Source: Cyanophora paradoxa CCMP329 (taxonomy: Eukaryota; Plantae; Glaucophyta). From it: a stretch of DNA of 64,000 nt. The notes beneath the pieces were generated by a model. The model worked only from the letters and a program-made list of their open reading frames with translations, was not told where the DNA came from and searched no databases. Location: contig QPMI01000627.1 of the NCBI GenBank assembly GCA_004431415.1, forward strand, positions 151,077 to 215,076, written 5' to 3'. A program made the translations under genes and the position numbers. Shown here one piece after another: positions 37,488 to 63,593 of this stretch; positions within the stretch are counted from its first letter, which is position 1, and each line of letters starts with the position of its first letter.

Positions 37488-37490
<3 letters not shown>

Positions 37491-41135: not shown

Positions 41136-42598
41136 TTATGTGAGAATATTATTGTTTTGGAGAGGTCCAACAGCAATCCAATGGAGTTTAAGGGTGCGAT
41201 TTGCTGCTGTGACATTTGTGAAATTAGTCGATGCGAAAGCTGTGAATCTTACGATCCAGGTAAACTTAGTTTTTAAACCCACACGAGTATTATTAACATA
41301 CTCAGGTCCGATATATACACAGTTGGTCATGTCCCAATTTACAGAGTTGAAGCTATTCTCGATAGATGTAGTAATCACTGCATCACTATAAAATGGGGTA
41401 GAGAATACGACCGTTCCCGATAATTGAAAGGTTTCTCCTGCTATGTATTCTCGATTGTCCAGGACTACATTCGCTGTCCCTGTTGCACATATGCATTTGC
41501 ATTTACATAACTACCGAAATTCGTGAGCAACTCTATGCTGTGATTGTGAGTGGGTGGCGAAGTAGGTGTGTTAATCAGATCATCATAATTTCCACTTGTA
41601 GCCACAGCATGCAAGTTGGGTGTATTAACGAGATCATTATAGTCTCCACTTGTAGCCACAGCATGCAAGGTAGGGGCAACAGGTGTGTTAGTTAGGTCAT
41701 TGTAGTCACCACTTGTGGCAACAGCATGCAAATTCGGCTTAGTAAATAACCTATCCCATGTCCCATTGAAAGGAAGTGTAGATTCTGATATAATTACACC
41801 TTGATCGATCCAACGAGGTATATAGCTTGTGAAATCGGGAGTTCCTACTAAATCATAGTAATTTCCTGTGTATGCTACACCACTCCAAGTCGGCTTCTGA
41901 ATGATATCACTCCACTTCCCACTAAAACCCGCCGGCACATCTGTAAGCTCCTTATAGCTCACCTTTTGCTTTGGTATAGACAGCTCAATTGGTGAGAATG
42001 CACCCGAAAGGCGATTTTCAGAGGTGAAATACATGAGACTTTGACTGTTAGGGAACTCATCCACGAGATTAAAGGTGAAATTCGTGGGCAATTCGAGTCG
42101 ACTAATTGGGGTGTTGTCGCCTAATATAAATTCGGCGCCTGTATGCACGACCGGGTTTCTTTGGATATACATATTGGATGCACCTATTACAGGTGCCACA
42201 ATGGGCACATCTGAACATACAAGGTTGCAAGTGATGGAGAAAATGGTTTTAGGGGCGAATAGATTGCAATCAAAGGTCACAGTAGCTGGATCAATAGTAG
42301 GATCGACATTTGAACAGATCTGAAACATCCACCCTCCCACACAGTTGCAATTTAGATTTCGAAAGGCTGTTCCTGCCATTGCATCCACATAGCCTATCCC
42401 ATTTGCTATGTCATATATGTGACCAAACTCGTAACCAAAAATGTCATTCCACAGGTTAGAAGCCATAGCTCCCATCACATACCCTTTTAGATCTACTATC
42501 AGGTCATTGGATTCACTGGGTATATTGGCATGGGTTATATAAAATTGATTATCCAAGACAGCATTCTTTATTGTCGTTTCTACTATGGGTTCAGTCAT
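41136..42598 (-). CDS. Fibre-like protein with LHAVATSGxYxDL repeats; ~487 aa after correcting one frameshift at ~41486
   Basis: Three LHAVATSG(D/N)Y(N/D)DL phage tail-fibre-type repeats; the alternative frame ATGTANVVLD...FSTPFYSDAVITTS joins ORF 41136-41378, which ends LHWIAVG. Confidence 0.7.
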
Positions 42599-42635
42599 TA
42601 TACTCTATTATGGAATACTACAAAAATTAAGGTTG

Positions 42636-46361: not shown

Positions 46362-46404
46362 CCTCTTTATAAACAAAGAAGATATATAAGAAGTATATAA
46401 GATA

Positions 46405-47898
46405 ATGAAGACCGTTCTCGCTTTGAGTGGTGGAGGGTCGCGCGGAATAATCGAGGCTGCTATACTGGCACAGATTGAAGCCCAAACCGGTAAACGAATC
46501 CAACAGCTATTCGACTGCTTTGCGGGAACATCCACAGGTGGATTAATCGCGCTCCTATTGAATATCAAGGGAACCGATGGCGCCCCTAAATATACTGCTA
46601 CTGATATTCTGGCGCTCTACAAAGCAAAGCTACCGCTGATTTTCGCGAATCCACGAGTGCTTACATCGATAGTGCAACGCCCAAAGTATGAAGCCACGAA
46701 TTTAGAAGCTGTGGCTCTGGAACTCTGCGGCTCAGCGACCATGGCGGATCTCTATAAACCCACCATCGTGACTGCGTTCGACACGGTTCAAATGTCCCCC
46801 GTTTTTATTTCAAGCAACGACGAAGATATTAATGGGATGCTTGTGCGCGATGCTGCAAGGGCTACCTCGGCTGCTCCGACCTATTTCGAGCCGAAACAAG
46901 TCACAGTCGCCGGAAGAACATACTGTTTAATTGATGGTTGCATGAGTGGAAATAATTCGCCCGGGGTTTGCGGCTACACATTCGCCCGCACTTTATTCGG
47001 AAACTCTTGCGAGGAGGAGCTTATCGTGGTCTCGATTACGGCGGGTCACGTCCAAGACTTAGATAAAGCGACATCTGGATATTCTTATGACACTATGAAA
47101 AATTGGGGGATCGTGCAATGGATGCTAAGCGCCACAGGATCGCCAATTCTCAGCATGTTCTTAGAGTCGAGCGATCTGAACGCCCACGTAAAGCTGCTGG
47201 AACTTTTACCCAGAAACGATGATCAGAATTACGATCGCTACTATAAGCTGAGCGTTCCTTTACCGAAAGATAAAATGACCCTCGATACTATCACAACGAG
47301 TCACCTGCAATATTTGGAAACGGAAGCGCTCGCCTTTGTTTCCGCACAGCAAACGTATTTTAATGCGATGTATTCAGTGCTGACCATGAATATATCAGAG
47401 GGAGACGTTCCCATAATTAATCTGTCGGGTTGCACAGATACAAGTGCACCCCCGGAGTCTAACTGGGTGCCGCTCGATAATAGCGCCTTTATTGCGGAAT
47501 TCGGCACAGCCTCCAATGCCCGCTGGTCGAATGCCACGGGGTGGGTGGGATTCACAAACCCGCCGCAAGGTAGTAGGTCGGGAGGCAATTATTTACGCAT
47601 CGATTTTCCGCGTCTGTTTATGCTTTCCTCAATAAAAATGAAGCCAGCTGCGAATGGCAACTATATTAAAACGTTTGAGATCGATTACCAATTAACTCCG
47701 GGAGTTTCGGCACTTGTCACATACACAGAAGCCGGCGCGACGAGAGTGTTTACAAATGCAAATCAAATAGCCGGAAGTGCTGATCCCGACGAACATTTCT
47801 TAGCGAACCCGAGATCTGTGAGAACCCTCGTAATCTGGGTGCTCACGACGAACGTAGCTTCGGCATGCCGAATTGATTTCGAGGGCTACTATGTGTGA
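46405..47898 (+). CDS. Patatin-like phospholipase fused to a C-terminal F5/8 type C (discoidin) domain
   Basis: GGGSRG oxyanion loop, GTSTG nucleophile, ARATSAAPTYF and DGC. C-terminus YLRIDF..YIKTFEIDY..VFTNAN..FLANPRSVRTLVI..RIDFEG follows the FA58C pattern. Confidence 0.88.
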   Translation: MKTVLALSGGGSRGIIEAAILAQIEAQTGKRIQQLFDCFAGTSTGGLIALLLNIKGTDGAPKYTATDILALYKAKLPLIFANPRVLTSIVQRPKYEATNLEAVALELCGSATMADLYKPTIVTAFDTVQMSPVFISSNDEDINGMLVRDAARATSAAPTYFEPKQVTVAGRTYCLIDGCMSGNNSPGVCGYTFARTLFGNSCEEELIVVSITAGHVQDLDKATSGYSYDTMKNWGIVQWMLSATGSPILSMFLESSDLNAHVKLLELLPRNDDQNYDRYYKLSVPLPKDKMTLDTITTSHLQYLETEALAFVSAQQTYFNAMYSVLTMNISEGDVPIINLSGCTDTSAPPESNWVPLDNSAFIAEFGTASNARWSNATGWVGFTNPPQGSRSGGNYLRIDFPRLFMLSSIKMKPAANGNYIKTFEIDYQLTPGVSALVTYTEAGATRVFTNANQIAGSADPDEHFLANPRSVRTLVIWVLTTNVASACRIDFEGYYV

Positions 47899-47933
47899 CT
47901 TCCTTCGGTCGTTGCGCGCTGACGAGACAGCGC

Positions 47934-48779
47934 TTAGTCGGTGATCACTTCCAGCTGAAACGAGTATGAGAGACCGTTTATATCCGCAACAGAGCCCCGC
48001 CATTTTCGAAGCGAAATTGTGAGACGATCTAAATCGAGTTGCGATGTGACATTTACGAAAGGGATGCTTGCGCTCGGTTCGTGGTAAAAGGAATATCTAC
48101 CAAAGTCCGAGTTCATCTGAATTCGCAATAGATAGGAGTCGTCGACATTGTTCTGTCTACCTGTAACCGCTGCGAATTTGGTAAAAGGGCGGAGCTCTTC
48201 GATATCAAGGTAAATATATGGAATTGCATTAAAGTCGACCATTTTCGGGCATATAATCGCGTAGCGACTCGGGTAATCTCTGAGTGGAACCGGCACTGGT
48301 TCTGGTGTGCTGGCGTAAACAACTCCGGGTTCTATGCCGAGACAATCACAGAACTCCTGGTCTGAGGACTCTAATGTAAACGGGCTATTCGGAGATGAGA
48401 AAACGAAGCGGTTTGTGGACAGAGCGAGAGAATAGGAAACCGGGAAGAGACCGAGTGGATTAAAAGAACCGCCAGAAAACCCGAGTAAAGCATCACTGTT
48501 TAAAGCTCTCTCTTTCGGATATCGTTCGTTATCAGCATCGACGTAATAATAATCGTTTACGCTGGGAATCGGTGCTATCATTTTGGATGCGGGAATTACT
48601 GTGGGCTCTTCGTTTAGAAGCGTTATAGTTATTGTCTGATCGGGCGGAACAACATAAGAGCTATTTGGAATCTCAGCGGATAGCACACGAAATCGTCGTA
48701 CATTATTAAGGCGCGTTTTCAAGTGCAGCACGCCGTTTTCAAGGTCTCTACTGTCGCAATTTATTGTTATTCTTTTCAT
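47934..48779 (-). CDS. Minor capsid protein (single jelly-roll penton) 1
   Basis: CDSRD..LNNV..LSAEIPN..YIYLDIEEL..LDRLTISL..DINGLSYSFQLEV matches the PLV/NCLDV penton pattern. Confidence 0.8.
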   Translation of the reverse strand: MKRITINCDSRDLENGVLHLKTRLNNVRRFRVLSAEIPNSSYVVPPDQTITITLLNEEPTVIPASKMIAPIPSVNDYYYVDADNERYPKERALNSDALLGFSGGSFNPLGLFPVSYSLALSTNRFVFSSPNSPFTLESSDQEFCDCLGIEPGVVYASTPEPVPVPLRDYPSRYAIICPKMVDFNAIPYIYLDIEELRPFTKFAAVTGRQNNVDDSYLLRIQMNSDFGRYSFYHEPSASIPFVNVTSQLDLDRLTISLRKWRGSVADINGLSYSFQLEVITD

Positions 48780-48795
48780 AATCTATTATAGTAAG

Positions 48796-49722
48796 ATGAA
48801 AGAATACCTGAGCTTTTCGAGCGATGATCGCGATGAGGAGTTTACTCAGCCAAACCAGTATGTAGTGACATTACCCCGTCGCTATGACAACGTAAAATCG
48901 GTGCGCCTGGTGCAGGCAACGGTTCCCAATGTTCTTTCGACCGTGACAAACGATATAGACGCCACTGGTGCAACCATCGAGCGCATGGAACTCTATTTCT
49001 CGGTCACAGCTTCGGATTCCGGATTCGTGACCATCACAATCCCCAAAGGATTTTACACCAAAGACGACCTTGCCGCAAAAGTCACAGAAAGACTCGAAGC
49101 AGCTCGCCTTTCAGATTTCGGTGGAAAATATATTAAATGCCGCTATAATACTACTTCAAAGATCTATGAGTTTTTCAGTGATAGCAACTTTTGGTTCAAG
49201 TTCTCCAAAGCTTCCCCTGAAACACTCAGAAAATCCAGTAACCGCAAAGCAATCGCTAAGAAACTCGCAATATTCGGTTTCAAAGATATTCAACTATATG
49301 TTTACGAGACATTTACCCCTCTTGCAAGCGATACATTCCTTGTGTTTAATCCTGGGACGGGAACTGTGACACTCAATCGACGCATTCGTGGCTATACTCG
49401 TGGAGATGAGACCCCGGCGGCGATGATCTGGCTATATATTGACGAGTTTGCGCCGTTTATTCGCTCAGTCAACAAGCACGTCGATGGTTATTTCATGCGC
49501 ATTCCAATCCCACAGGAACTCGAACATGGTGATATCTACCACTTCGACACGTCCACTACGGTGCCTCTCATTCGTGAATTCCGCGAATTAAAATCGTTCG
49601 ACCGCTTGACGATTAAACTCATCGACCATGATGGCGCTCTCTTAGATTTCGGGGTTTGGGCGCATTATTTCACTTTTGAAATCGAAACCTACGACGCACC
49701 GCCCGAAATGAATTTCTACTAA
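48796..49722 (+). CDS. Minor capsid protein (penton) 2
   Basis: SSDDRD..YDNVKSVRLVQATVPN..IPKGFYT..WLYIDEF..FDRLTIKLIDHDGALLDF..FTFEIE. Confidence 0.8.
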   Translation: MKEYLSFSSDDRDEEFTQPNQYVVTLPRRYDNVKSVRLVQATVPNVLSTVTNDIDATGATIERMELYFSVTASDSGFVTITIPKGFYTKDDLAAKVTERLEAARLSDFGGKYIKCRYNTTSKIYEFFSDSNFWFKFSKASPETLRKSSNRKAIAKKLAIFGFKDIQLYVYETFTPLASDTFLVFNPGTGTVTLNRRIRGYTRGDETPAAMIWLYIDEFAPFIRSVNKHVDGYFMRIPIPQELEHGDIYHFDTSTTVPLIREFRELKSFDRLTIKLIDHDGALLDFGVWAHYFTFEIETYDAPPEMNFY

Positions 49723-49769
49723 GCCCTTTAAATTATTTTCTGATCCCAAAGATAAGAGAAGAAACGCTC

Positions 49770-51083
49770 ATGGAGACTAACAGCCAATTCCAGCGCCCAA
49801 CGCTGAAATCTATGCTCACCACCGATGACTACAAGGATTATTTCCTAAACAAGTCGCTGGTCATTGGAACGTCCTCTGGCACTAAGCCACTTCGAGTTCT
49901 GGTCGCCCCCGATACCGAACCAACCAATGCCCTCGGTAACCGAGTAGTTTTCAAAATCCCCCGCTACCATTTCCTGAATGGTCTCGCGCTGCAACTCGAT
50001 CTTAACCCGATCACCCTCACTGATCTCACGAATGGTGTCGCTGGAACTACTGGCTACCTTCGCGTCATTGGATCGCTAATTAAGCGCATTGAAATCTCTC
50101 ACGCTTCATTCCGCTATGTTGTCCCGGAAGATTTCGTCACCCAGTATTTTCTACTGATGACTGAACAGGGCGAACTCGATAAGAAACTTCGCTATGTGGG
50201 TGGTCTTGTCGGAACCGCTGGTAACACTGTCGGTGGAACCTACGAAATCGATTTACCCTCTCCTTTCGAAAAGGCGATGTTCCCACTTTGCGCTCTGAAC
50301 TCTGAGATCACAGTAGAAATCGAATTCAAGGCGCAAGGGGATGGTATCATTGAGGATGTAAACAATGTTGCTAATATTGCGGTAACCAACAATGGCGCTT
50401 CCCTTCAAGTGCTGAAACCCCGCGTTATTTGCAAGGTCGTAAATGCCGATGAGGCGGTTGTATCTGAGACCATTGCCCGTGTTAAATCGACTGGCATCGC
50501 GATCCCCTACAACGAAATCGGTTTCCTACACACAGATTTCCAGCCGACCGCCTCCGGTTCGCGAGTCAATCTCTCGCAACTCACAGGTGCGGGTCTCATT
50601 CACACTCTCGTATTCTCTGTGCGCCAAAACGCGAAGACGAAGGTGAACAACGGAACTCTCTCGGTTCTGGCTCCTCGTGCACTCAGAACCAACGCCGTAA
50701 GCTTCTATGTGGAACTCAACAATAACCGCCTTTACTCAAATACTTCGCTTCCTCTCATGATTGCCGCGACCGAACTTCAAGAGAAATATAATTCGGCGAT
50801 CTTTACCGAGAGCACAAGCTACCCCGCTCTCACTGGCATTTATTTCGGTGCTGGAAACGGAAAGGCGTCGCTTCTCAACCAAGAGAATACGGGCTACATC
50901 GATGCCACAGGCACATCGGCGTTCGATCTGGTCTTCGAATTCAACGGTGTCACAACGGCAGCCGAAGGTTCATCAGAATGGTATGCGGGTGCCGCTTATC
51001 AGAAGATGCAAATTCAGTGCATTGCCCTCGCTCATAACATAATGATAATTTCCGCCGACGGAATCAGGCGTGTAAGTAGCTAA
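49770..51083 (+). CDS. Major capsid protein (double jelly-roll, PLV type)
   Basis: 437 aa, beta-rich; NRVVFKIPR, SLIKRIEI and IDLPSPF..FPLCALNSEITVEIEF motifs; located next to the pentons and ATPase. Confidence 0.8.
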   Translation: METNSQFQRPTLKSMLTTDDYKDYFLNKSLVIGTSSGTKPLRVLVAPDTEPTNALGNRVVFKIPRYHFLNGLALQLDLNPITLTDLTNGVAGTTGYLRVIGSLIKRIEISHASFRYVVPEDFVTQYFLLMTEQGELDKKLRYVGGLVGTAGNTVGGTYEIDLPSPFEKAMFPLCALNSEITVEIEFKAQGDGIIEDVNNVANIAVTNNGASLQVLKPRVICKVVNADEAVVSETIARVKSTGIAIPYNEIGFLHTDFQPTASGSRVNLSQLTGAGLIHTLVFSVRQNAKTKVNNGTLSVLAPRALRTNAVSFYVELNNNRLYSNTSLPLMIAATELQEKYNSAIFTESTSYPALTGIYFGAGNGKASLLNQENTGYIDATGTSAFDLVFEFNGVTTAAEGSSEWYAGAAYQKMQIQCIALAHNIMIISADGIRRVSS

Positions 51084-51155
51084 GGAATTCGTCGGACAAA
51101 AAATGACGTTCTTTTTATCTTTTGCCCATTTAAGGACAAGACAATTTACAGTATT

Positions 51156-51872
51156 ATGGAATACGGCGGACAAATGGAAGGCATTAGGCGAATCGCACTT
51201 AATGGGAAGCATGGAGAAGGCAAATTTGCGCTTGTCGATGAAGCAGACTATGAGCATGTCACTAAAATCAGTAAGTGGTATTTTCATAATGTCAGAGGTT
51301 ACGCATGGGGCTATGTTGGAAAGGGCAAGAATATTGACATGCACAAGTGGATTATGGGAAGCCGCGATGGGCACTTTGTAGATCACATTAGCAGAGATAA
51401 ATTGGATAATAGGCGTTGCAATCTTCGCTTTTTAACCCCGCAAGAGAGCGTCATTAACACTGGCGTGAGACGAACAAATAAGTCAGGTCTCAAAGGAGTG
51501 ATGCAGAGAAAAGACACTGGAAAATGGAGAGCTGAAATTCAAAAGAACGGAATTTCTTATAATCTCGGATGCTTCAACACGAAAGAAGAAGCCGCAGCAG
51601 CATACAATGCAAAAGCAACCGAACTGTTCGGCGATCTTGCGGTTCTTAATGATGTGGATCCTGTAAATCTAACTCGTAGATTGCTGAAATCAACGAATTC
51701 GAGTGGTTATCGTGGTGTCAATCAAACGAGATCTGGAAAGTGGGAAGCGAATTTCATGCATAACAAACAGAGATGGCGCAAAATATGTGACACAAAGGAA
51801 GACGCAGCTCGATTTTACAATGAGAAAGCCGCCGAAATTCTGGGTGATAAAGCGATCCTAAACGAAATCTAA
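51156..51872 (+). CDS. HNH homing endonuclease with two AP2 DNA-binding domains
   Basis: VDHISRDKLDNRRCNLR (HNH); NKSGLKGV..KWRAEI..LGCF..EEAAAAYN and SSGYRGV..KWEA..EDAARFYN (AP2 x2). Confidence 0.92.
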   Translation: MEYGGQMEGIRRIALNGKHGEGKFALVDEADYEHVTKISKWYFHNVRGYAWGYVGKGKNIDMHKWIMGSRDGHFVDHISRDKLDNRRCNLRFLTPQESVINTGVRRTNKSGLKGVMQRKDTGKWRAEIQKNGISYNLGCFNTKEEAAAAYNAKATELFGDLAVLNDVDPVNLTRRLLKSTNSSGYRGVNQTRSGKWEANFMHNKQRWRKICDTKEDAARFYNEKAAEILGDKAILNEI

Positions 51873-51922
51873 ACCAATTACCACATTCAGTCTTATTTTT
51901 CTATTGTTTTTATAGTGAAAGA

Positions 51923-52789
51923 ATGCAAAAAGGGACGACGCCCATAGATCTCGAAGAATGGAACCCGAAACAGAGGGTGAAACTTCCCGCACGATTTCTC
52001 TTATTGGCGAAAACCAATTGTGGTAAATCGGTATTCTTAAAGTGGCTGATCAAAGAACTCGAAGACCAGATCTCGTATGTTCTGGTTTTTTGTCCTACGA
52101 GTTTCAACGGTTTCTGGGGACAAATTACAGATGAAGTGCATGATACCTGGAAACCGGAATATGTGGAGTCGATCATAGAAGCCCGCAAAAAAGCCATCAT
52201 CGCGGGTAAGAAACCAAAGAATATTCTCATTGTGCTCGACGATTGTTTGGAGTCCGGAACTATCGATCTTTCGCGCGATCATTTGCTAAATAAATTGATG
52301 GCGCAAGGTCGTCATACGTTTTGTTCCGTGGCTTTAATATCGCAAAAACTAACAAAGCTTTCAACGATCATTCGCAGCAATGCGGAGTATATCATATTCC
52401 TAAGCTGGTCAAACATGCGAGAGTTTGAAGCATATCACGAAGAGTTCGGGAACATGGATAAAGAGAGTTTTAAGCGCATGTTCCAAGAATTCTGTCATAG
52501 CTACCAAGCGATCATTCACGATAATACCGGGTATTCTGTGCGATGGTGGGTCGAAAAAGCCGATATGATCGATGACCATCCGTTTACTAAATTCCACAAG
52601 CGGGCGGCTTTTGAAGAAAAGAAGCGCAAACAACAAGAAGAGCAAGCATCAAAACCGCCGCCTGTCAAAGATTCGACAACTGTATGCAAAACTTTATCCA
52701 AATTTGAGCGTGAGCTTGAAGGTATCCCCAAACTTTCGCAAATTTCGCCTAAGAAAAAGAAAATGTTAATCAAATGTAAGAGAAGATAA
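51923..52789 (+). CDS. A32-like (FtsK/HerA) genome-packaging ATPase
   Basis: Walker A AKTNCGKS, Walker B LIVLDD, GRH..SQ and IRSN motifs. Confidence 0.92.
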   Translation: MQKGTTPIDLEEWNPKQRVKLPARFLLLAKTNCGKSVFLKWLIKELEDQISYVLVFCPTSFNGFWGQITDEVHDTWKPEYVESIIEARKKAIIAGKKPKNILIVLDDCLESGTIDLSRDHLLNKLMAQGRHTFCSVALISQKLTKLSTIIRSNAEYIIFLSWSNMREFEAYHEEFGNMDKESFKRMFQEFCHSYQAIIHDNTGYSVRWWVEKADMIDDHPFTKFHKRAAFEEKKRKQQEEQASKPPPVKDSTTVCKTLSKFERELEGIPKLSQISPKKKKMLIKCKRR

Positions 52790-52791
52790 TC

Positions 52792-53475
52792 ATGGTCTAC
52801 CGAAAGAAGCCTCAAACCATTCAAACTGTCGCTTCTGGTAATCCTAATCGCGGACTTGAAGAGTCTGGGTTAACGTCGGGTGGCGGTCTCGAAATGCCCG
52901 AATATCTTATAGACACTTCGCCAGAGGAGGTCGCCAAGCAAGAGGCGATTATTGCGAGTGCCACCGCGGACAAGGGAAACCAAGATAGCGGTAAACGCCA
53001 AATGGACGATTTAGCTACTGTAAAACCACAGATTGGAGGCGGCTCTGTTGATGAAGCAACCGACAAAGTAATTAAAGCGCAAGTTGTCGCAAGCCAGCAC
53101 AAAACGCAAGACGTCCCGAAAGCCGCCGAAACCGAGCTTAAAAAGCGCGGATCCTATCAAAAACACACGGTTCCTGTCGACGTTGTCATGAGCTTCGAAG
53201 AGAAAGTGCGAGACCTTGAAATGAAAGTCTCTAACTACGAGAAATGGATGCAAGATTATAACGAACGCAAGAAATTAAAGGGGCTCGTGAAGAAAGAGAT
53301 CTCCAAACTCGGATTAAAGCAAAAAGTCGACGTAGAGGAGATTAAAAAGGAGGAAAAGACAGATGCGCAAGCCGTAACTCGACAGCAATCGGTTGCCCCG
53401 CAATATGCACATATTGTGCCGACCGCACCCGTGAATTATGCCGCAATGCTCGGTGGTAAACGCCATATCCGCTAA
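52792..53475 (+). CDS. Hypothetical charged coiled-coil protein
   Basis: 227-aa ORF starting 2 bp after the ATPase stop; Lys/Glu-rich. Confidence 0.65.
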   Translation: MVYRKKPQTIQTVASGNPNRGLEESGLTSGGGLEMPEYLIDTSPEEVAKQEAIIASATADKGNQDSGKRQMDDLATVKPQIGGGSVDEATDKVIKAQVVASQHKTQDVPKAAETELKKRGSYQKHTVPVDVVMSFEEKVRDLEMKVSNYEKWMQDYNERKKLKGLVKKEISKLGLKQKVDVEEIKKEEKTDAQAVTRQQSVAPQYAHIVPTAPVNYAAMLGGKRHIR

Positions 53476-53679
53476 TGACTGTGAATATCCGCAAGGCAAA
53501 GCTGAACCCGCCCGTATTTAGAGCGGGTCTTTATGTGGACTCCCTTGCAAAACGGGCATGTGGGTTCTGTAAACAGCATTATAAGATCGACCAACTCATA
53601 AGGAAACACACGAGCAAGCAATAGCCTCATTCCCTTTTATTTTCTCACATATTTAATACGTTGCGTCCTTGTAGGATCT

Positions 53680-54114
53680 ATGAATTTCATAACACAATGC
53701 ATTGAAATGTTTCATCTACATTTCATATCTCACTGTAAGTCCGGATGTTGCGACACAACCGTAGAGGTTGATATTACCGATGAAGACCATGGAGGTAGGC
53801 GCCTTTCTGTATATTCTAACCATAGCGACAATCACAACCACCCACGATCTCGATCGCCCTCGCCTGTGACCGCGGCTATGAGTTCCAATATCGAAACCGC
53901 TCAGATAGAGGACGTGCATGTAGAGCATATTAGAAGGCGCTCATGTCCTGAGTTTGTAGAAGGTCATTTGCGCGCTGACTCCCCTTATCCGATGTATAGA
54001 TTGGATCAAATGGCATTAGGCGACGATGAAAATGTAACGAACCCTTATGTTTATCCTCAGCAACCTTATGTATATCCTCAGCAACAAGAAAGAACCGTCT
54101 GGAACGGTTATTGA
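53680..54114 (+). CDS. Hypothetical protein with CKSGCC cluster and PYVYPQQ tandem repeat
   Basis: 144-aa ORF preceded by TATTTTCTC. Confidence 0.55.
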   Translation: MNFITQCIEMFHLHFISHCKSGCCDTTVEVDITDEDHGGRRLSVYSNHSDNHNHPRSRSPSPVTAAMSSNIETAQIEDVHVEHIRRRSCPEFVEGHLRADSPYPMYRLDQMALGDDENVTNPYVYPQQPYVYPQQQERTVWNGY

Positions 54115-54238
54115 GCGGTGAATTTCGGTGGCGCTTGTATCGAGCCAAGGGCAAAAATTGAAGGTTTCGGTAAAAGGTATTTAAGGGCAAGGGAAATAAT
54201 ACAGAGTGACAAAAAACTATTTTCTCCGGTTATAGTAA

Positions 54239-54652
54239 ATGGCGAAACCCAAGATTTCAAACCAAGAGGCGATGGCGGCACAGCAGGAAAAGCGCAGACC
54301 CGGGCGACCGAAAAAGGTGATTTCAGAAGAGGAGAAGGCGGAGAGATTAAGATTAAAACGCGAAAAAGACGCCGAGCGGCAGCGAAACAAGCATCAGAGA
54401 CAGAAACAGGAGCGATTAGCCGCCGGAGAGGCTACGATATTCACCCCGGAACAGCTACAAAAGATTGCAATTCGTAAACAGCAGCGATACCAAGACGATG
54501 AAGAGTATCGGGAGAAAATCCGAGAGAAGGCACGTGAATACCAACGAAGGAAAAGAGCGGAACGCAAGCTGAATCCGCCCGCTAAACCTCAGCCACAAAA
54601 GCCCGCTGGGAGACCCCGAAAGCATGTGGTCGAGAACGCGAAAAATTCGTAG
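54239..54652 (+). CDS. Small basic DNA-binding protein with two AT-hook-like motifs
   Basis: RRPGRPKK and AGRPRK flank an Arg/Lys/Glu helix; preceded by the TATTTTCTCCGGT motif. Confidence 0.7.
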   Translation: MAKPKISNQEAMAAQQEKRRPGRPKKVISEEEKAERLRLKREKDAERQRNKHQRQKQERLAAGEATIFTPEQLQKIAIRKQQRYQDDEEYREKIREKAREYQRRKRAERKLNPPAKPQPQKPAGRPRKHVVENAKNS

Positions 54653-54785
54653 CGGAAAGTATCCGCACGATGCGAAAAATGATTAATTTTTTACCTCCCT
54701 TTTTATTCCCCGTATCCGTCAAAAAGCACTTAAAGAATTAGCGACAAGGGTATGAAAAGGAGAATTTGGTAGATTGCGTCGAAAT

Positions 54786-54798
54786 TATTTTCTCCGGT
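54786..54798 (+). promoter_or_regulatory. Putative viral promoter motif TATTTTCTCCGGT (also 54218-54230 and 60544-60556)
   Basis: Exact 13-mer 8-22 nt upstream of three ATGs. Confidence 0.65.
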
Positions 54799-54820
54799 TA
54801 TTTTAAAAGAACTAATAGAG

Positions 54821-57800
54821 ATGCCGCGCGCAACCAACAGAATCGCTAACAATGTTCGGGATGAAATTATCGGATACATTATGCAGGGATTGAGTCAGGA
54901 TTTGCTAACCGAAGAACAGGCGCATTGGGCGATGCACAACACAATGAATCGGAAGCCCAAGCTCCAAACGCTGATCGACATTCGGGACACTCTGAATGGA
55001 ATCATTAATCCCCGCGTTTTCCGCAGGGCAGAGCGGAAAGAGAAGCGCGCCGCTCGCACCCAAGTTAATATAGAAAAGCAAAAGCAAAAAGAACAAGAGG
55101 CGAAGCGTTTACAGCGCTTCGATCGCAAACGAGAACAGAAACGGGCGAAAGAAGCGAAACTCGAAGCGAAGCAGCAGAGAGGTAAACTAAAAGCGGTAGA
55201 GGATGCGATTAAACGCACTATTCTCGATCCAATCGCCGCATACGATCCGGAAACTCTCGCAACAATTACGTTCAAGCTATGGGGACCTGGATCCGGTGCT
55301 CGGTCGTCGGAGGTAATTGTTATTCCCGGAATTCCCGAATTAAATATACCAGACAGAACCTTTGTCACCTACCAGAATATAAGAGAGACAGTTTCGGTGA
55401 GGGTGTTGCGAAACTTTGCTCTGGCAAAAATCGATAGAGTGTATGGAATTCTCACCGCTCAAAATCGTTATTATTCGGAAGAGAGAGATTCAATCTTCGA
55501 TTTACTCGAAAACTACGATGAATTGAAGATTCGTCTGGGAACTTTCGGACAAGCATACGAGATGTTCTTCTTTAAGACACCACCAACCGAGGAACAGAAA
55601 AAACTACGCAAAGGTTTCGATGATTTTGGCGGCAGTGTCGATGATGCCTTTATAACTGTTCATGAGGTCGTGATCGATGGGACGAAGGTGTCGAAGATGA
55701 CGGAGCCGGTGCTATCCCTGGCAATCGCTATGAGTTCCTGGATGATGAGCTAATGGACAGTATGCGATGCACCGCGATTATGAGCAAATTCACAGACTAC
55801 ACATTAAATCCAAACGCGTCTGAGTTCGAAGATGTTATTGAGCTTCCCAAATCATCTACATCTAACGCTTGCGGATACGATATGATCATCTCCACATGGG
55901 GAGCGTCCATTAAGAAGTGTCAGGACGCGCCAAAACCGCGATATACTGACTTAACTATGTCCTACGACGGTCTCTATAAATTCTTTCACGGTCGCGAACG
56001 CACACCTGGCGACTCTCTGGCTCTCACCCTCCGCCATATCGAGAAATTCTGTAAGAGAATTCAGACAGGCTTCCGCGTCTTTGATGTCGACGGAAAGTTA
56101 ATACACAAATTCGCGGCGGAATCAATTAACAAAAACATCTTTCCCGCAATATTCACTTTATGATTCACAACAAGCACATCTATATATTCAACGATAACAT
56201 CAAGTCGCTCGAAATGCGCATGGCGAAGATGGAGGTCGAAGAGCTCGATAATCATGTTCCTAAGTCGACCTCTTCGTTAGCACTCTATAAAATTCCGACG
56301 TGTCTTACTCACGATATCTTCGCGCACACATCCAAGGATTTGTTAAAGATCACGCAACTTAAACTATCGCCCGACGAGCGCAGTTTCATCCGCATTCTTT
56401 ATACTGGGCGCGAAGGTCTGGAAGGTCTTCTATTTACGTTCCTGAAAATGCGATATGAGCCCGCTGTGAAGCTAACACCATCGAAACAGATCGACAGCAT
56501 CACATTCAAAGCCAATGGCTCGATGTTCTCTATCAAAGATCCACGCACAACAGACCACTTTATTGAGCAAGATTTCGAAACAGAGGAGTATTATAATAAG
56601 GTCTGTGAAATCGGGAAGGGATTCCGGGAGTCGCTTCTAAATGCGACGAATATCTCACATTACAGCCCGAACATGCGCGAAATTCTCACGCACTACAAGC
56701 GATCCGCACTAAGTGGCTTTTTCTATAAGCCGAACCCGAAAGCCACCTACACAGCTGTCGATATGGCGAAGTGCTACCCTTCGATACTGAAAGGCATGCA
56801 ATATCTTCCGAAATACAATGTGTTTGATGACTTCGTTCCCTTTAAAGCGGGAAGCGATATTCTCGAATACGCGATCTACTACGTGCGTGTCGTTGCGTTT
56901 GAGAGAGAGCAAGCGACTTTCGCCGACGATGAGGATGTAGATTATGATGCCGCCATGTCTCGCAAGATTGATGGAATCGAAATTATTCTGGATCGCGCAT
57001 TTTCCGTGAGTGGTCGCTGTTATAATTTCATGACAGGCTACACTCTCTCCATGCATTGGGCGGACGTAAAGGACAAGATAGAGATTATCGCGGTCGCGGA
57101 GCCTTCGCATTTGGTGCCCAATACGTCGATCGCTGAGATGCAAAAAGTGCTGTCAAGCGACATTCAAACCACAGATAAGAAGCATATTTTAGTGAAAGAG
57201 ATCGGAATGCTCGGCAAATTCCAAGACTCGCAAACATCCACGAAAATGTTCTACAACCGTGCCGAGGCTGAGAGGTTCGCCCAAGAATGCGGAGGAACAG
57301 TAGAGGTGTTTACTTTCAATCCTAAGAATTCGAAACGTGTCAAAACTCTTAGCGAATTCGAAGGTCACATCTATTTCGTTAAGATCAGCTCCCACCGCGA
57401 GCTCGTTAACGGATTCCTTCCTATCCACTTTCATATTTACGATCGCAACCGTGCTAATATGTTTGCGCAATACAAGCGCCTGACAGCGCGCGGGCACAAG
57501 GTTGCCGGGATCAGAACGGATTGCCTATATATCGAAGGTTCATGGACAAGTAAGAAAGAGTTCGACCGAAATGCGTTTGAGAACATGGGCAAATTCAGCT
57601 ATATTCCCGGGAAAAGATGCCCTGAGAATGCACTCCGCCCACCACGGGGTGTAACTCTCGAATTTCAGGATCCCGAGACACTCATTAACCGGTTCTCGCT
57701 GAGGGACGAATTTAATCCGGAGTGCTTTAATTGGGTTGCGGAGCTCCATAATCGTATGCTTGTCCTTGCTGACATGCCCGGAAGTGGAAAGTCGACCCTC

Positions 57801-59129
57801 GGTATTAATTGCTTTGCCTCTCAAAAGTCAAATTGCTTAGTCATTTGCCCCTATAACAAACAGTGCGCAGAGCTGAGGGACTCTCTCAAAGTCCGCGGAA
57901 TCGAGAATATTACCGTTCGTACTTTATATAATGTTCTCGGGATCCGTGTCTCAAATGATCAGACCTACGAAGAGGCTATGAGCGAAAAAGACCAGAGGGC
58001 GTTCGTCTCCGAGTTCAGTCACATTATGTTCGACGAGATATTCGCGTATTCCGTAAAAGATCTCGCTAAGATCAAGTCGTTTATCGATCGCTATCCGGAT
58101 ATCAAATATTTGGCTAATGGCGACACCTATCAAAATGAACCAATTAATGACGAGCTCTCGGTTTCTGATCGCAAGGGCTACTATAAGCGCGCGGTGCAGA
58201 GTATGTTCCCTAACGTTCTGAGTCTACGCAATAACAAGCGGCACAAGAAGGAGACAGACCGTGAATTAATTCGGGCGATTAAAGAGGATCTCTTCGAGAA
58301 CGGACTGGAAGCCGCACAGATTATCTCGAAATACGGGTTGCCGACAATTAATGATCTAAGCGCTATTCCCGACGGCTACTTTGGCATCGCTTACAGAAAC
58401 GAAATGACCTTAGCCTACAACAAACTGATGCACGATAGACGCAAAGTAAATATCCCAACCGTAGAGGTCAATGGCATCAAATTCTACAAGGGTTTGGAAG
58501 TCGTTTGCCGCAAGTATCTACGCATTTCGCGGTCTGAGGGCGAGTCTATAAACGCATACACGAATTACACCTATCGAATCACCAAAATCACAAAGCAAAT
58601 GGTCACATTAACGGACGTTTTCGATGGTGTCACGTTTGAGGTTCCGTGCGCGATGTTAGAACATTTTTCTCTCCCTTATGCAGGAACAGGTCATTCAACG
58701 CAAGGTCTCACACTTGATTCGGGCATTGTCATTTGTGAGGCTACGTTCCGCTATACCACTCGCGAATGGTTCTATACCGCGCTCACTCGTAACCGCGATC
58801 TGTCTACTGTGCTGATTTATACACCGATTCACAAGTTCCAAGGAAAGAGTGACTACATCGAGTATCTGAAAGGGAAGATCCGCGGTTACAAATGCCAGGA
58901 TCAGCGTGCCGGGCGCGATTTCGATGAGGCGGATTATATTACGCCGGAGTGGATATTAGAGCGCAAGAAGCAACAGAAGGGCGCCTGTGCGCTCTGTTCC
59001 CTTCCTATTCCGACTGAGCCACAAGATCCGAATTACAAGCTCGTCGTGGATCGCATAAACAACAGGCGCCCACATCTTAAAGACAATTGCCAGCTCGTGC
59101 ATCACGGGTGCAATTGCAGCAAAAAATAA
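54821..59129 (+). CDS. ~1436-aa replication protein: basic N-terminal region + divergent family-B polymerase + SF1 helicase + C-terminal Zn/HNH-like domain (two frameshifts)
   Basis: PolB motifs VDMAKCYPS (A), KHILVKEIGMLGK (B) and GIRTDCL (C). SF1 motifs DMPGSGKS, MFDEI, GDTYQN, GHSTQG and YTALTR. C-terminus CALC..VDRINN..H..NC..H..CN. ORFs 54821-55753, 55753-56163 and 56160-59129 join by +1 nt at ~55680 and ~56145. Confidence 0.85.
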
Positions 59130-59147
59130 ACAGGTTTAATTAGAAGA

Positions 59148-60530
59148 ATGTCACGGATCGTTAGAAGGGTAGCGGGCGAGGAGACAGAGACCACCATACT
59201 ACCTATCGCGGTTCCTGAAACTGAGCAAGTCCCCCAAAAAATCACAAAACGCCAAGCAAAATCAAATTTATTAGGAGATGTTCCTTTTAGCATTGCTAAC
59301 CCGTCCTCGAAGATCGTGCGCCGCATGTATGACCCAAAGACAGGTTTTAAGAACCCATCGGCATTGTACGAAGAGCTGAGAAAAGAGGACAAGAGCCTCA
59401 CATTGAAAGAAGTGCAAGATGTCGCAGCGAAACAAGAATTTATGCAGATTAACAAGAAGCCCCCAGCACCGACCCAAACAGCTTTTATTCCCATCACAGC
59501 CCCGCCGTGGTGCTATCAAGCGGATCTCATCTTTTATCTCTCATATGGCAATTATAATTCCGGCTACATTGCAGTCCTTACTCTCATTGAGATGACAAGC
59601 CGAAAAGCATATGCCAAGAAGTTAAAGAATAAGGAGGGCGCAAGTGTTGCCGCCGCTTTTGCGGAGATGCTCACAGATCTCCCGGCTCCAATGGTTCGAT
59701 TAGAGACAGATAACGGTTCGGAATTCATCGCGAAGGAGTTTCAGGAGATCGTTAAAAATAACGGAATAGAACACCGCTTTAAACAGGTCGGAGATCACAC
59801 TTCGCTGGGAATAATGAATCGCTTTCATTTGACCCTAAAAACGATGATAAACAACTACTGTGTCGCTTATAACACTGTGCGATTTATGGACAAATTGGAC
59901 GACTTCGTTTTCAATTATAACAACACCATTCACAGAACCATAGGAATGAAACCCGCAGATGTTAAGCTTTCTGATATGGAGCGGATCAGAGCGGCTATAA
60001 TTTCAAAGAAGAACACAATCGTAAAGGATATATTCAGCGATTTTAAACCTGGTCTCCACGTCCGCCTGTTATTGCCGAGATCGAAATTCGATAAAGGGGC
60101 GACTCAAAGGTATAGCCGAGAGGTCTACAAAATTGCGGGAAGGAGAGGAAACGCGATAGAGGTGCAAGATGCAGCGGGGAACGTTATGCCGAAGCTGTTT
60201 AAGCCGCACGAATTGCAAATCATTACAGAGGTCGAAGCTGTGGTGGAACCATCAGGCAACGCTATTTTAGCGGCTGATGTAGAGGCAGCTTCGATCCGGC
60301 AGGTGCAAAAAGAAGGTATAGATGTTGCCGCAAGTGTTCCGAAAGGGGCTCTATTGGAAGATCGCGCAGAAAAGACGAAGAGGGCGCTTAGAGAGCTCGC
60401 CAAATTGACAATCGCGGGAACTGAGAAGCTCTCAGAGGTAAACAGTCAGAGGTGGTATAAATCATTCAAGAATCAGAGCGCAAGCTACACAGCCCCTACT
60501 ACGCGCATTCTTCGGTCATCTCGTTCATAA
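59148..60530 (+). CDS. Retroviral-like (rve) integrase, Polinton type, D-D(35)-N variant
   Basis: YQADL, ETDNGSEF, GIMNRFHLTLK, YNNTIHRTIGMKP and FKPGLHVR..FDKG..YSREVYKI; consistent with the 6-bp TSD. Confidence 0.92.
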   Translation: MSRIVRRVAGEETETTILPIAVPETEQVPQKITKRQAKSNLLGDVPFSIANPSSKIVRRMYDPKTGFKNPSALYEELRKEDKSLTLKEVQDVAAKQEFMQINKKPPAPTQTAFIPITAPPWCYQADLIFYLSYGNYNSGYIAVLTLIEMTSRKAYAKKLKNKEGASVAAAFAEMLTDLPAPMVRLETDNGSEFIAKEFQEIVKNNGIEHRFKQVGDHTSLGIMNRFHLTLKTMINNYCVAYNTVRFMDKLDDFVFNYNNTIHRTIGMKPADVKLSDMERIRAAIISKKNTIVKDIFSDFKPGLHVRLLLPRSKFDKGATQRYSREVYKIAGRRGNAIEVQDAAGNVMPKLFKPHELQIITEVEAVVEPSGNAILAADVEAASIRQVQKEGIDVAASVPKGALLEDRAEKTKRALRELAKLTIAGTEKLSEVNSQRWYKSFKNQSASYTAPTTRILRSSRS

Positions 60531-60569
60531 CAAACCCCGAAATTATTTTCTCCGGTAAATATAAAAGCG

Positions 60570-60884
60570 ATGGAGGGTGAAAAGCATTTCGTTGACATTC
60601 CGTATGATAAAAAAGACGTTGCGAAATCCCTCGGTGGAAAGTGGGATCGTGAGAATTCATGCTGGTATGTCACGAAGAAAGATCACCCCCTATGCTCTCA
60701 GTTCAAAACTCTAAGCTATGAGCAAGTGTATCAAAGAAACGTGAAGGTTTACCTCGATATTCCTTATGAATTTAAGGATCAAGCGAAGGCTGAGAGAGCC
60801 CGCTGGGATCCCGTCATGCGATGCTGGTATGTCATGGGTCTCGATCACCCGCTAATGGGCAAGTTTCCGATCAAGGAACATTAA
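60570..60884 (+). CDS. Tandem DUF5710-like domain protein
   Basis: Two repeats (F/Y)xDIPYxxKDxAKxxxxxWDxxxxCWYV. Confidence 0.8.
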   Translation: MEGEKHFVDIPYDKKDVAKSLGGKWDRENSCWYVTKKDHPLCSQFKTLSYEQVYQRNVKVYLDIPYEFKDQAKAERARWDPVMRCWYVMGLDHPLMGKFPIKEH

Positions 60885-60909
60885 ATGTATATGTCGCTTT
60901 TTTCATTTT

Positions 60910-61302
60910 TTATGAAATTGGGAACCTTTGCTCGACCTGTAAGTCCCACTTTCGAACTTTCAGCCTTTCTTGTATGAGTTCGTTAATGTCCCGTGCTATA
61001 CCCATTGTCTTCGCTTCGGCATTTGAGCCGCATGTAAAGATATCGATCGCTAATAGCCCCTGGTCGCTGTAAGAGTGAGCTGTCGCATGCGACTCATCTA
61101 ATAGAAAGCCAATCGCGAAACCGGGAGGGGAAATAGAGCCATCGAAAATGCATGTGTGCTGGTGCACGATGCGCATCTTGCGATCTGTTATATATTGCGA
61201 TAGGTTCGCTGTGATCCACTCGGCGCATGCCTCCGGGGACTCGGTGAACGGGTCGGTTATATAGTCCAGCATTACGTGGTAGCCGCGGTATCGGGAATCC
61301 AT
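60910..61302 (-). CDS. speD: Prokaryotic-type (class 1B) S-adenosylmethionine decarboxylase proenzyme
   Basis: GYHVMLD, PPGF..LLDESHATAHSY..LAIDIFTCG; the E-S autocleavage site, downstream His and FTCG Cys are conserved. Confidence 0.88.
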   Translation of the reverse strand: MDSRYRGYHVMLDYITDPFTESPEACAEWITANLSQYITDRKMRIVHQHTCIFDGSISPPGFAIGFLLDESHATAHSYSDQGLLAIDIFTCGSNAEAKTMGIARDINELIQERLKVRKWDLQVEQRFPIS

Positions 61303-61690
61303 TATTATTTAAGTCGATATTTTTGTGAGCTATGTGGTTTCGTAGCCGCCAAATCGCGCCCTTTGCGAATCAGACCGCGCCGCTTTGTAGTAGCGTAGAA
61401 CTACTCTATACGCGCACGGTTGCAAAGTATGACTAGTGGAGCCTCATGGGAACGCGCGCCGGCTCTCAGAATGTAGCGGACACCTCGATTTTCGGGCACT
61501 TGTGCCTATGGCGAATTTGCACTTCTTGCCACGGTTGAGTTAGCTAGTCAAACTAGCACCAACATGCCCGGAATCAAGTTGTGAGCACGTAGCAATTGAG
61601 AGCGCGCCGAGATCGGCTTCCTGTCCAAAGTTATGCGGGGAAAACGGAAGGGGGGGTCTCCGCGAAGTCGCGATCGCCGGTGTTATCGAG

Positions 61691-61734
61691 TCGGGACTCG
61701 GGACTCGGGACTCGGGGCTCGGGACTCGGGACTC
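61691..61734. repeat. (TCGGGAC)6 heptamer array
   Basis: Direct reading; one unit is TCGGGGC. Confidence 0.9.
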
Positions 61735-62123
61735 CAACTTTGCAACTTAAAATGCAACTGGCAAGTGTCATACTATGATAGTATAGGCTACCGCCGACCG
61801 CCGAGTTGGCTCAGCGGCTCACCGAGTCACTGGGAGTCAGAGGCTTAGAGCCCCGCGATCGCATTTTTAAAAACTATGCATTTTACACATTATTTTTTGA
61901 GCCTATGAAACTTATATGGACGTGCTAGCCTCGTTAAGACGGTCACGGCGCTATTTTCAGTTTTGCAGGGTGATGAGCTGGTGATGAGATACAAGCGTTT
62001 GACGATTTCCATCGAAAATCGGTGTTTTGGTATCCCCCTTTCGCTTTTCCCGTATGCCCCCTTTCGCCGATTGAATTGTGTGCGTTTTTGATTGGACACC
62101 GTAACCTGAGCACGCTTTATTAT

Positions 62124-62428
62124 AGCCAATCCTGATCCTGTCAGCCTGTCCTCAGCCAATCCCGATCCTGTCAGCCTGTCATCAGCCAATCCTGATCCTG
62201 TCAGCCTATACTATCAGCCGATACTATCACCCTGTCAGCCTATACTATCAGCCTGTCAGCCTATACTATCAGCCTGTCAGCCTATACTATCAGCCTGTCA
62301 GCCTATACTATCACCCTGTCAGCCTATACTATCACCCTGTCAGCCTATACTATCACCCTGTCAGCCTACTGTCAGTCTACTGTCAGCCTACTATCAGCCT
62401 ACTCTCAGCCTACTGTCAGCCTACTATC
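62124..62428. repeat. Graded tandem array (30-bp x3, 21-bp x~7, 11-bp x~6) built on a TCAGCC core
   Basis: Units AGCCAATCCTGATCCTGTCAGCCTGTCxTC, TGTCAGCCTATACTATCA(G/C)CC and TGTCAGCCTAC. Confidence 0.9.
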
Positions 62429-62728
62429 GATGATCTCTTATCACATTACGATCAGCCATAACAGCTAATTTATCACATTACGATCAGACAACGTAAAAAT
62501 ACTACGCTATCGCATGCTATATGTTTTCGGAATCGCCGCGATGTGATGACCCCGAATACGTCGGTGACGCCGGTATATATATGTATATGTCGCCATATGA
62601 GAAAAAAAACAAACAAAAAACAAAAAATTCGGTTGTGCGCTGGATCACACACACGGAGGTTCGGACATATATACGAAATATATACATGACTAAATCGTTA
62701 TTGTTTTCATAGAACTCGCATGTAGTTT

Positions 62729-63587
62729 GCATGTATCTTGCATAGTGGGCGGGGCGCGAGTGGTTCCAGTGCATTAAATGGAACATTTCGATTGAAGTCG
62801 CGAGTTTGTGCAGGTGGGCATTTTCGGCATGCTTGCTCATGCACATACTCGCTTTAAAAAATATAAAATGAAATTCGGTTTAACTCTTACGAGTTTTGCT
62901 ATAACACTCTCGGCATTGATAGTTGAGACCATCCTTCGTTCTTTGTCTTTTATTAAACTCACTTGCAAGCTTCTCAATCTTGCAGTGCGAGCATATCTTC
63001 GATTGTACTTCGATCTTCGGACGCGTTTTTAACACGAAATGATAAAGGTAATTGTGATAGTCTCGGTCGCAAACTTTGCACCTCCAATTCAAAAGTACAT
63101 TCCCTGAGCTACCTACGCTTTTGCAATGCATAACTCGATGCCGGTTTTACCTTATCGCAAACATTGCACCGCTTAGTCTCAGGTAGATTTACTTGATTGC
63201 TTGCCATTGTTACAGTATATTAACTGGAAGTCTTTAAGTGGGGATCACTTGTTTAATTGGTGGGCTCACCTTGATTTTTCAATTTGGGTAACTGAAAACA
63301 GTCCGGAAACGATCGGGAACATTTCGTAAAAATGAGGGTCTTACTGTCCTTACTGAGAGATCGGGGAAAGTTAAAGGGCTTACTGGGAATGGTAAGGAAT
63401 TAGAAAAATGAAGAATGAAAGGGTTTCGTGATTGGTTTCAGTAAGGAAGGGTTAGATGTTTGAAAAATACAATGTGGCTCAGTGCGAATTTGTGATTTTG
63501 TGACTGAGATTCGTGATGCTGAAAATGTGCTTATTGAAAATGGTCGCGGGAAGGTCGCGCAATTGGTGGGGTGACCACCCTGCGAGC
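62729..63587 (-). repeat. Right terminal inverted repeat
   Basis: Ends GTGACCACCCTGCGAGC, followed by TSD CCTCCT. Confidence 0.97.
62880..63207 (-). pseudogene. Right-TIR copy of the zinc-finger gene, frameshifted by a 4-nt insertion
   Basis: GCTACCTACG at ~63108-63117 versus GCTACG in the left-TIR complement. Confidence 0.85.
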
Positions 63588-63593
63588 CCTCCT

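Follow-up and report, generated by a model that had tools for sequence, protein, structure and literature searches.

The stretch of DNA analysed here (the window) comprises 64,000 nucleotides of a contig of the glaucophyte Cyanophora paradoxa CCMP329. Its right-hand part contains an integrated polinton-like virus (PLV) of 24,787 bp (38801..63587), and close to the right end of this virus a short open reading frame (ORF) on the minus strand (60910..61302) specifies a pyruvoyl decarboxylase proenzyme of the SpeD fold. The initial annotation, made from the letters alone, called this product a stand-alone S-adenosylmethionine decarboxylase (AdoMetDC). The label is probably wrong. On balance the protein is reasonably likely to be a self-processing pyruvoyl L-arginine decarboxylase and not an enzyme acting on S-adenosylmethionine (SAM), and its gene an accessory metabolic gene of the integrated PLV. 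Arginine-decarboxylating homologues of AdoMetDC have been named SpeDA (Li et al., JBC 2023, PMC10407285).

The decarboxylase gene and its product

The gene is an intact ORF of 130 codons with an ATG start. Its product matches Pfam family PF02675 (AdoMet_dc) with an E-value of 1.7e-11 and 44.8 bits, above the cut-off of 25, and its motifs read ...LLDE-SH-ATAHSYSDQGLLAIDIFTCGS... By sequence it can be aligned with the proteins of Aquifex aeolicus (PDB 2iii) and Thermotoga maritima (1tlu and 1vr7) over the core LLDESHATAHSYSDQGLLAIDIFTCG. A search of the ESM Atlas returned PF02675 again and nothing further. The AlphaFold2 (AF2) model, calculated from an alignment of 41 sequences, has a mean pLDDT of 96.4, and its best matches in the PDB, as found by Foldseek, are the class-1b AdoMetDC proenzymes 2iii, 1vr7 and 1tlu (TM 0.70-0.79; E 6e-8 to 1.5e-7). 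As modelled, the protein has the class-1b AdoMetDC fold, an alpha-beta sandwich, as in the proenzymes of T. maritima and A. aeolicus.

Residues S63, H68 and C83 of the T. maritima enzyme are essential to self-processing and catalysis (Li et al., JBC 2023, PMC10407285). Alignment to 1tlu and 2iii places Ser71 of the window protein (codon 61090..61092, minus strand), the predicted pyruvoyl precursor, at S63; His76 (61075..61077, minus strand) at H68; and Cys91 of the FTCG motif (61030..61032, minus strand) at C83. Among 233 non-identical rows of the family alignment the serine is present in 231, the histidine in 232 and the cysteine in 229. Self-cleavage is predicted between Glu70 and Ser71, and would convert the proenzyme into a beta chain of approximately 70 amino acids and an alpha chain of approximately 60 amino acids starting with pyruvate. 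The initial annotation had recognized an intact pyruvoyl-type proenzyme from its ESH cleavage site and FTCG motif, and this part of it stands. The gene has a G+C content of 0.50 (0.58 at third codon positions), which is like that of the other genes of the element and unlike that of the host (60-75%).

Relatives of the protein and the question of its substrate

When 1.84 billion representatives were searched exhaustively with HMMER, 288 matches at E≤1e-3 were obtained, and the best 150 of them share the core SPPGF..LDESHxxAHCYSDxGxLAIDVFTCG..RF, with RF at the C-terminus. Prokaryotes were scanned using one genome per species (185,579 genomes), which resulted in 479 candidate stretches, 433 of them confirmed. 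The best 80 loci were kept; all are from Marine Group II (MGII), Poseidoniales or Thalassarchaeaceae archaea and show 38-54% identity to the window protein. The two MGII genomes that were searched whole have one PF02675 gene apiece. A single-protein scan of IMG/VR with the decarboxylase gave no match, and a word-based protein search was likewise empty.

Of the 80 MGII loci, 79 have a DHS/SpeY homologue within approximately 4 kb on either side of the decarboxylase, and 28 have a gene of the arginase family there. In one locus (L009) DHS directly follows the decarboxylase, while in another (L016) the two are fused and the arginase-family gene lies ahead of them. This arrangement is the speB-speDA-speY order described for MGII/III and Poseidoniales genes (Li et al., JBC 2023, PMC10407285). 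Other relatives are arginase+SpeD-like (P0037) and SpeD-like+methyltransferase+DHS fusions (P0044, P0050; the methyltransferase is NNMT-like), and DHS is also found beside a family member on an unclassified metagenome contig (L100). According to the same group (JBC 2026) SpeY uses agmatine directly, coupling two molecules of it, so that the DHS and arginase fusions unite consecutive steps of a single pathway. No spermidine synthase was found with the relatives, either in the fusions or in the loci compared. The family includes two further architectures, a tandem double decarboxylase of 328 amino acids (P0001/P0152) and a SET-domain fusion (P0025).

An unrooted IQ-TREE tree was built from 75 rows and 127 columns, with support expressed as ultrafast bootstrap/SH-aLRT. 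Sixty-seven of the rows form a clade with support of 98/96, in which the window protein is joined by the MGII genes, by the fusions to DHS and to PQ-loop domains, and by viral sequences. The AdoMetDCs validated for phages S-PM2, phiYS40 and P2559S fall outside it, as do five unlabelled rows. A preliminary quick tree with 128 rows agreed with this. The AdoMetDC of phiN3 was omitted from the 75-row tree because its branch length of 10 in the quick tree made it unplaceable. Most of the deep branches inside the 67-row clade are without resolution.

Within this clade the window protein belongs to a group of seven rows (support 97/87), the others being L096, L097, L098, P0009, P0004 and P0005. The L096 contig looks giant-virus-like, with an mRNA capping triphosphatase, an AEP_C962R primase, a 2-oxoglutarate (2OG) oxygenase and a G+C content of 0.62. 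A similar look is given to L097 and L098 (P0002 cluster) by RNase III, a GH46 chitosanase and dense ORFs. P0009 is a PQ-loop fusion, and P0004 and P0005 are short unlabelled proteins. Family members also occur on clear giant-virus contigs in IMG/VR, namely L091 (Rpb2), L092 (poly(A) polymerase) and L093 (D5 primase with an intein), and one member with a eukaryotic label comes from the chrysophyte Chromulina nebulosa. The gene thus belongs to a pool that this small virus has in common with giant viruses and protists. The initial annotation had proposed a phylogeny to find the donor of the gene: its nearest kin can be named, as giant-virus-like contigs and a PQ-loop fusion, while the direction of transfer cannot be read from an unrooted tree with poor resolution in its inner part.

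An N-terminal membrane segment is present in relatives P0003, P0009, P0010, P0012, P0013 and P0015. The PQ-loop domain of P0003 was detected by Pfam (E 7e-8), and in L099 (260-1321) it forms an ORF adjoining that of the decarboxylase; in the other five proteins the PQ-loop/membrane segment was read directly from the amino acids. On the Rpb2 contig (L091, 9998-11306) the decarboxylase homologue and a 2OG-Fe(II) oxygenase gene overlap by 8 nt at the start of the latter. The two, which are found together on L096 as well, may be a functional pair. On an IMG/VR contig of 18.3 kb (L094) a family member is accompanied by a protein with collagen repeats, an AEP primase-helicase and a weak match to A32; this contig may be a second small virus that has the gene, or a piece of a giant virus. 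Its 451-amino acid ORF showed no similarity to the candidate capsid protein of the window virus or to PDB chains.

With respect to the substrate, the window protein scores 47 bits against the AdoMetDC equivalog model of NCBIfam (TIGR03330), below the cut-off of 75.65. All bona fide AdoMetDCs are stated to keep the proline of the HTWPE motif, which the SpeDA enzymes have lost (Li et al., JBC 2023, PMC10407285); its position is occupied by Ser79 in the window protein, and the column contains no Pro in the 233 family rows (Ser 174, Ala 31, Thr 15, others 13). The same authors report L-arginine as the only substrate of the assayed homologues from Poseidoniales, MGII/III, Nannochloropsis gaditana and Tribonema minus, with no ornithine or lysine activity in these four, and neither of the two assayed archaeal proteins rescued spermidine synthesis in an E. 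coli speD deletion. The low equivalog score, the missing proline and the 98/96 clade make the name given by the initial annotation probably incorrect, and its own caveat, that some SpeD homologues act on arginine or ornithine, becomes the better reading: the protein appears to belong to the SpeDA lineage, apart from the validated AdoMetDCs.

A number of points weigh against arginine as the substrate. There is no assayed enzyme within the eukaryote/virus branch nearest the window protein, and the link to validated arginine decarboxylases (ADCs) consists of approximately 40-50% identity plus a clade whose inner branches are unsettled, support between the seven-row group and MGII being less than 80. 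The tree and the comparison are without the assayed SpeDA sequences (AIF02979, DAC51064, XP_005856029 and KAG5182568); the link to the MGII enzymes runs through the taxon, the single PF02675 copy in both MGII genomes searched whole and the gene arrangement. In addition, the gene stands alone in the virus and on the giant-virus-like contigs, with no speB or speY in the window or in L091-L099. The HTWPE rule is not absolute, since phiYS40 and phiN3, AdoMetDCs validated by the same group, also lack the proline; and the aromatic Tyr78 and acidic Asp80 of the window protein, at the Trp and Glu positions of AdoMetDC, could allow SAM to bind.

These last two points count for a bona fide AdoMetDC, which would deliver decarboxylated SAM (dcSAM) to the spermidine synthase of the host in the manner of the class-1b enzymes of Heterosigma akashiwo virus 01 (HaV-01) and of Yellowstone Lake phycodnavirus 2 (YLPV2). 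The window protein shares its fold and its catalytic residues with AdoMetDCs. Eukaryotic hosts possess spermidine synthase, and a stand-alone SpeD would therefore be workable. Functional prokaryote-type AdoMetDCs are, moreover, known in eukaryotic viruses (PNAS 2023, PMC9992855). We nevertheless consider an AdoMetDC unlikely here, given the score beneath the equivalog cut-off, the 98/96 branch between the clade of the window protein and the three validated phage enzymes, and the published assays, in which all members are arginine-only and the archaeal relatives fail to replace speD. Relatives are fused to agmatinase-family or to agmatine-using SpeY domains, none having been found with a spermidine synthase, and in 30 of the 233 family rows the Asp/Glu position of HTWPE holds Lys, Thr, Asn, Ser or Ala.

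Two further readings are also doubtful: that the substrate is some other amino acid, such as ornithine or lysine, or that the eukaryote/virus branch has a novel activity linked with membrane proteins of the PQ-loop type. The PQ-loop family includes basic-amino-acid exporters, several close relatives are joined to such a domain (P0003, and L099 as adjacent ORFs), and the nearest seven-row clade holds no assayed enzyme. Among SpeD homologues the substrate has switched several times (PNAS 2023, PMC9992855; JBC 2023, PMC10407285). The latter paper, however, describes the ornithine decarboxylase (ODC) lineage, SpeDC, as one clade that is set apart and has diagnostic residues of its own, and the MGII and stramenopile relatives assayed in it had no activity on ornithine or lysine; the DHS-fused members, furthermore, lie inside the same 67-row clade as the window protein.

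Selection on the gene and its possible role

Contigs from four DNA runs of the same organism were compared over 60540-61420, with 30 of 30 bins covered in each run. Since the variants were taken from assembled contigs they may be a mix of paralogous copies and strains, and do not constitute a full census. Sixteen of the variants listed fall inside the decarboxylase ORF (two further rows over 60540-61420 are unlisted), of which 13 are synonymous and three non-synonymous. The replacements, D17E, S93T and R104Q, are conservative changes that lie outside the catalytic core. No indels were present within the ORF in the four runs; the two listed are outside it, at 60562 and 61332. The pN/pS ratio is approximately 0.07 (86.7 synonymous and 303.3 non-synonymous sites), with a binomial P of 9e-7 for at least 13 of 16 variants being synonymous under neutrality. 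The neighbouring DUF5710 gene has 10 synonymous and seven non-synonymous variants. Because of the 13:3 ratio and the lack of indels we conclude that the decarboxylase is under purifying selection among the copies. That it is a decaying passenger without viral function, as its place in an accessory region beside a terminal inverted repeat (TIR) and the absence of the 30-nt motif found at three other element genes might suggest, is very improbable in view of this selection, the intact ORF with its catalytic residues, and a composition that matches the virus.

The variant copies diverge starting 9 nt upstream of the ATG of the decarboxylase gene, where there is a loose end at 61311, and one DNA contig joins 61311 to 61891, skipping the stretch between. 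Run X1 contains 2,501 contig pieces with 90-100% identity over 19.9 kb of the element (window 44000-63900), from which the virus family seems to be present as many variant copies or strains in the organism. In each of 19 DNA runs of the same organism approximately 0.6 of the words of the virus were found. A further run (X20), which is only guessed to be RNA, yielded a few low-depth contigs of 150-196 nt from several element genes and from non-coding parts, and has no bearing on expression.

The enzyme would turn arginine into agmatine. In agreement with the initial annotation, the Pfam scan of 23 ORFs of the element revealed no spermidine synthase, and tblastn of agmatinase-family and DHS/SpeY queries against the whole window found nothing. 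Since the virus is without a follow-up enzyme, agmatine would be processed to putrescine, and then to spermidine or homospermidine, by enzymes of the host or of a giant virus infecting at the same time; candidates for the downstream steps are agmatinase, or else agmatine deiminase together with N-carbamoylputrescine amidohydrolase. The larger polyamine pool would serve viral replication and translation. The gene itself would have passed from virus to virus, given that its closest relatives are on giant-virus-like contigs. A more speculative version, to which we attach little probability, is that this virus/protist branch of SpeD moves among giant viruses, their polinton-like companions and protist genomes (there PQ-loop fused), and that agmatine or another amine made by the small virus tunes or hijacks the polyamine supply during giant-virus co-infection. 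The gene would then be a metabolic gene for the interplay of virus, virus and host, and more than a spermidine booster. The idea of the initial annotation that the gene drains SAM or raises dcSAM, and so blunts methylation-based silencing of the provirus at host DNA or histones, is scarcely credible: it needs SAM as the substrate, which the evidence disfavours, no methylation-related gene was seen beside the decarboxylase in the Pfam scan of the element ORFs, and it can appeal only to the family name, the SET-domain fusion (P0025) being a mere curiosity.

SpeDA has been described in MGII archaea, bacteria and two stramenopile algae, in a clade comprising Marine Group II/Poseidoniales, Gimesia, Solirubrobacter, Nannochloropsis and Tribonema (Li, Liang, Phillips and Michael, JBC 2023, PMC10407285). 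The window protein is like these enzymes in its length of approximately 130 amino acids, its Ser/His/Cys residues, its lack of the HTWPE proline, and its identity to and common 98/96 clade with the MGII genes. It differs from them in that its gene is viral and alone, whereas the MGII genes are beside or fused to speY and often accompanied by speB, and in that its nearest kin are giant-virus-like contigs and PQ-loop fusions rather than archaea.

The class-1b AdoMetDCs of phages and Algavirales (S-PM2, phiYS40, P2559S, phiN3, HaV-01 and YLPV2; PNAS 2023, PMC9992855) are likewise virus-borne, self-cleaving pyruvoyl decarboxylases of the same fold which function in polyamine synthesis. Besides the branch that sets the three phage enzymes compared apart from the window clade and the score of the window protein below the TIGR03330 cut-off, they differ in their carriers, which are phages or giant viruses, in contrast to the 25-kb integrating PLV seen here. 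The phage SpeD homologues with ADC or ODC activity (the ADC of pelagiphage HTVC201P and the ODCs of Lake Baikal and uncultured phages; PNAS 2023, PMC9992855) follow the same theme, SAM having been left for a basic amino acid. According to the papers the SpeDC/HTVC201P lineage is separate from that of MGII and the stramenopiles, and it is set apart here by that description only. Chlorovirus PBCV-1 is another algal virus that starts polyamine synthesis from arginine (PNAS 2023, PMC9992855). It uses a pyridoxal phosphate-dependent ADC derived from ODC, which together with AIH, NCPAH and homospermidine synthase leads to putrescine and homospermidine; this ADC has the unrelated alanine-racemase fold, and PBCV-1 carries the whole pathway as against the first step only in the window virus.

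Polyamine-related SpeD homologues, including those with switches to arginine or ornithine, have accordingly been described in phages, and prokaryote-type AdoMetDCs in Algavirales (PNAS 2023, PMC9992855). The initial annotation regarded metabolic genes as unexpected in such small viruses. This holds only in part: a 2026 bioRxiv preprint on 2,355 marine PLVs lists auxiliary metabolic genes for many of them, though decarboxylases go unmentioned in the main text of that survey and its supplements might list one. The published full texts on PLVs or virophages, as far as they were accessible, yielded no report of such a polyamine/AdoMetDC-type gene. With the window virus a small virus would join the phages and giant viruses in which polyamine-pathway genes of this kind have been described to date. 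What is new here is the correction of the likely substrate and the placing of the gene in a viral and protist neighbourhood not set out before. Should the enzyme prove to be an arginine decarboxylase, a virus of 25 kb would devote approximately 1.6% of its genome to the opening step of putrescine synthesis and retain it under purifying selection, which would point to the supply of polyamines or agmatine as limiting even for very small eukaryotic viruses. A caution about annotation by name follows as well, in that viral and protist 'SpeD' matches fall mostly in a lineage whose assayed members leave SAM unused. Lastly, the PQ-loop, agmatinase, DHS and methyltransferase fusions of the relatives provide hypotheses on uncharacterised polyamine pathways of protists.

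The virus and other features of the window

The initial annotation described the carrier as an integrating virus of approximately 25 kb, and the inverted repeats, the target duplication, the integrase and the packaging ATPase confirm this. The TIRs (left 38801..39658, right 62729..63587) are approximately 850 nt in length with 96-100% identity; they were computed as 38818-39658 and 62729-63571 and extended to 38801 and 63587 by reading the ends. Directly outside them is a 6-bp target-site duplication, CCTCCT (38795..38800 and 63588..63593). Since the TIRs are near-identical and the duplication is intact, the insertion appears to be recent. The G+C content drops to 0.42-0.50 within the element from 0.60-0.75 in the flanks.

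All of the core genes mentioned here are on the plus strand. They include an rve-family integrase (59148..60530; PF00665, E 3.7e-13), an A32-like DNA-packaging ATPase (Pox_A32, 51923..52789; PF04665, E 1.7e-10) and a replication protein of 989 amino acids (56160..59129) whose C-terminal half is SF1-helicase-like, with weak matches to AAA_30, UvrD_C_2 and Viral_helicase1 that are all below their cut-offs. The lack of a protein-primed family-B DNA polymerase is a mark separating PLVs from polintons. No DNA polymerase of this or any other type was found among the Pfam matches of the 23 element ORFs. A candidate major capsid protein, as a lead only, is specified by 49770..51083: in the ESM Atlas it has a score of 0.98 to viral clusters, 12-18% of the members of which carry Capsid_N or Capsid_NCLDV, and it has a single relative (60% identity) among 5.8 billion clusters. 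It gave no Pfam match and no PDB sequence match, and its AF2 model failed (pLDDT 31). Single-protein scans of IMG/VR with this candidate and with the 989-amino acid helicase revealed no relatives, and the core genes of the element had no match in loci L091-L175. We call the element an integrated PLV, with the capsid feature as a candidate only.

Convergent with the decarboxylase gene is that of a protein with two DUF5710 repeats (60570..60884, plus strand; PF18974, E 4.9e-24). Accessory genes at 46405-47898 and 51156-51872 specify, respectively, a patatin-like phospholipase (E 1e-21) and a fusion of an HNH endonuclease with an AP2 DNA-binding domain. Each TIR contains a Cys-rich, zinc-finger-like ORF (39184-39507, plus strand, and its mirror 62880-63131, minus strand) with a weak match to the Stc1 domain (E 3e-4), so that there are two copies of this gene per virus.

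A 30-nt motif with the core ATTTTCTCCGGT is located 1-40 nt upstream of the ATG of three element genes (54239, 54821 and 60570), the copies being at 54212-54241, 54780-54809 and 60538-60567. It is a candidate viral promoter. Its 12-nt core is absent upstream of the decarboxylase gene; with two mismatches allowed this core has 6 matches in the window against 5.5 expected, which is not above chance. Between the start codon of the decarboxylase gene and the right TIR there is a repeat-rich non-coding stretch of approximately 1.4 kb (61303..62728), in which tandem repeats of 7, 30, 21 and 11 nt are located at 61688-61736 and 62124-62445.

A second, smaller element of approximately 2.5 kb (35714-38188) lies directly to the left of the virus. 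It has inverted ends of approximately 280 nt (35714-35989 and 37909-38188) with 94-96% identity, a single ORF of 187 amino acids (36831-37394) without a Pfam match, and an (AT)n run (37406-37491), and is possibly a non-autonomous DNA transposon.

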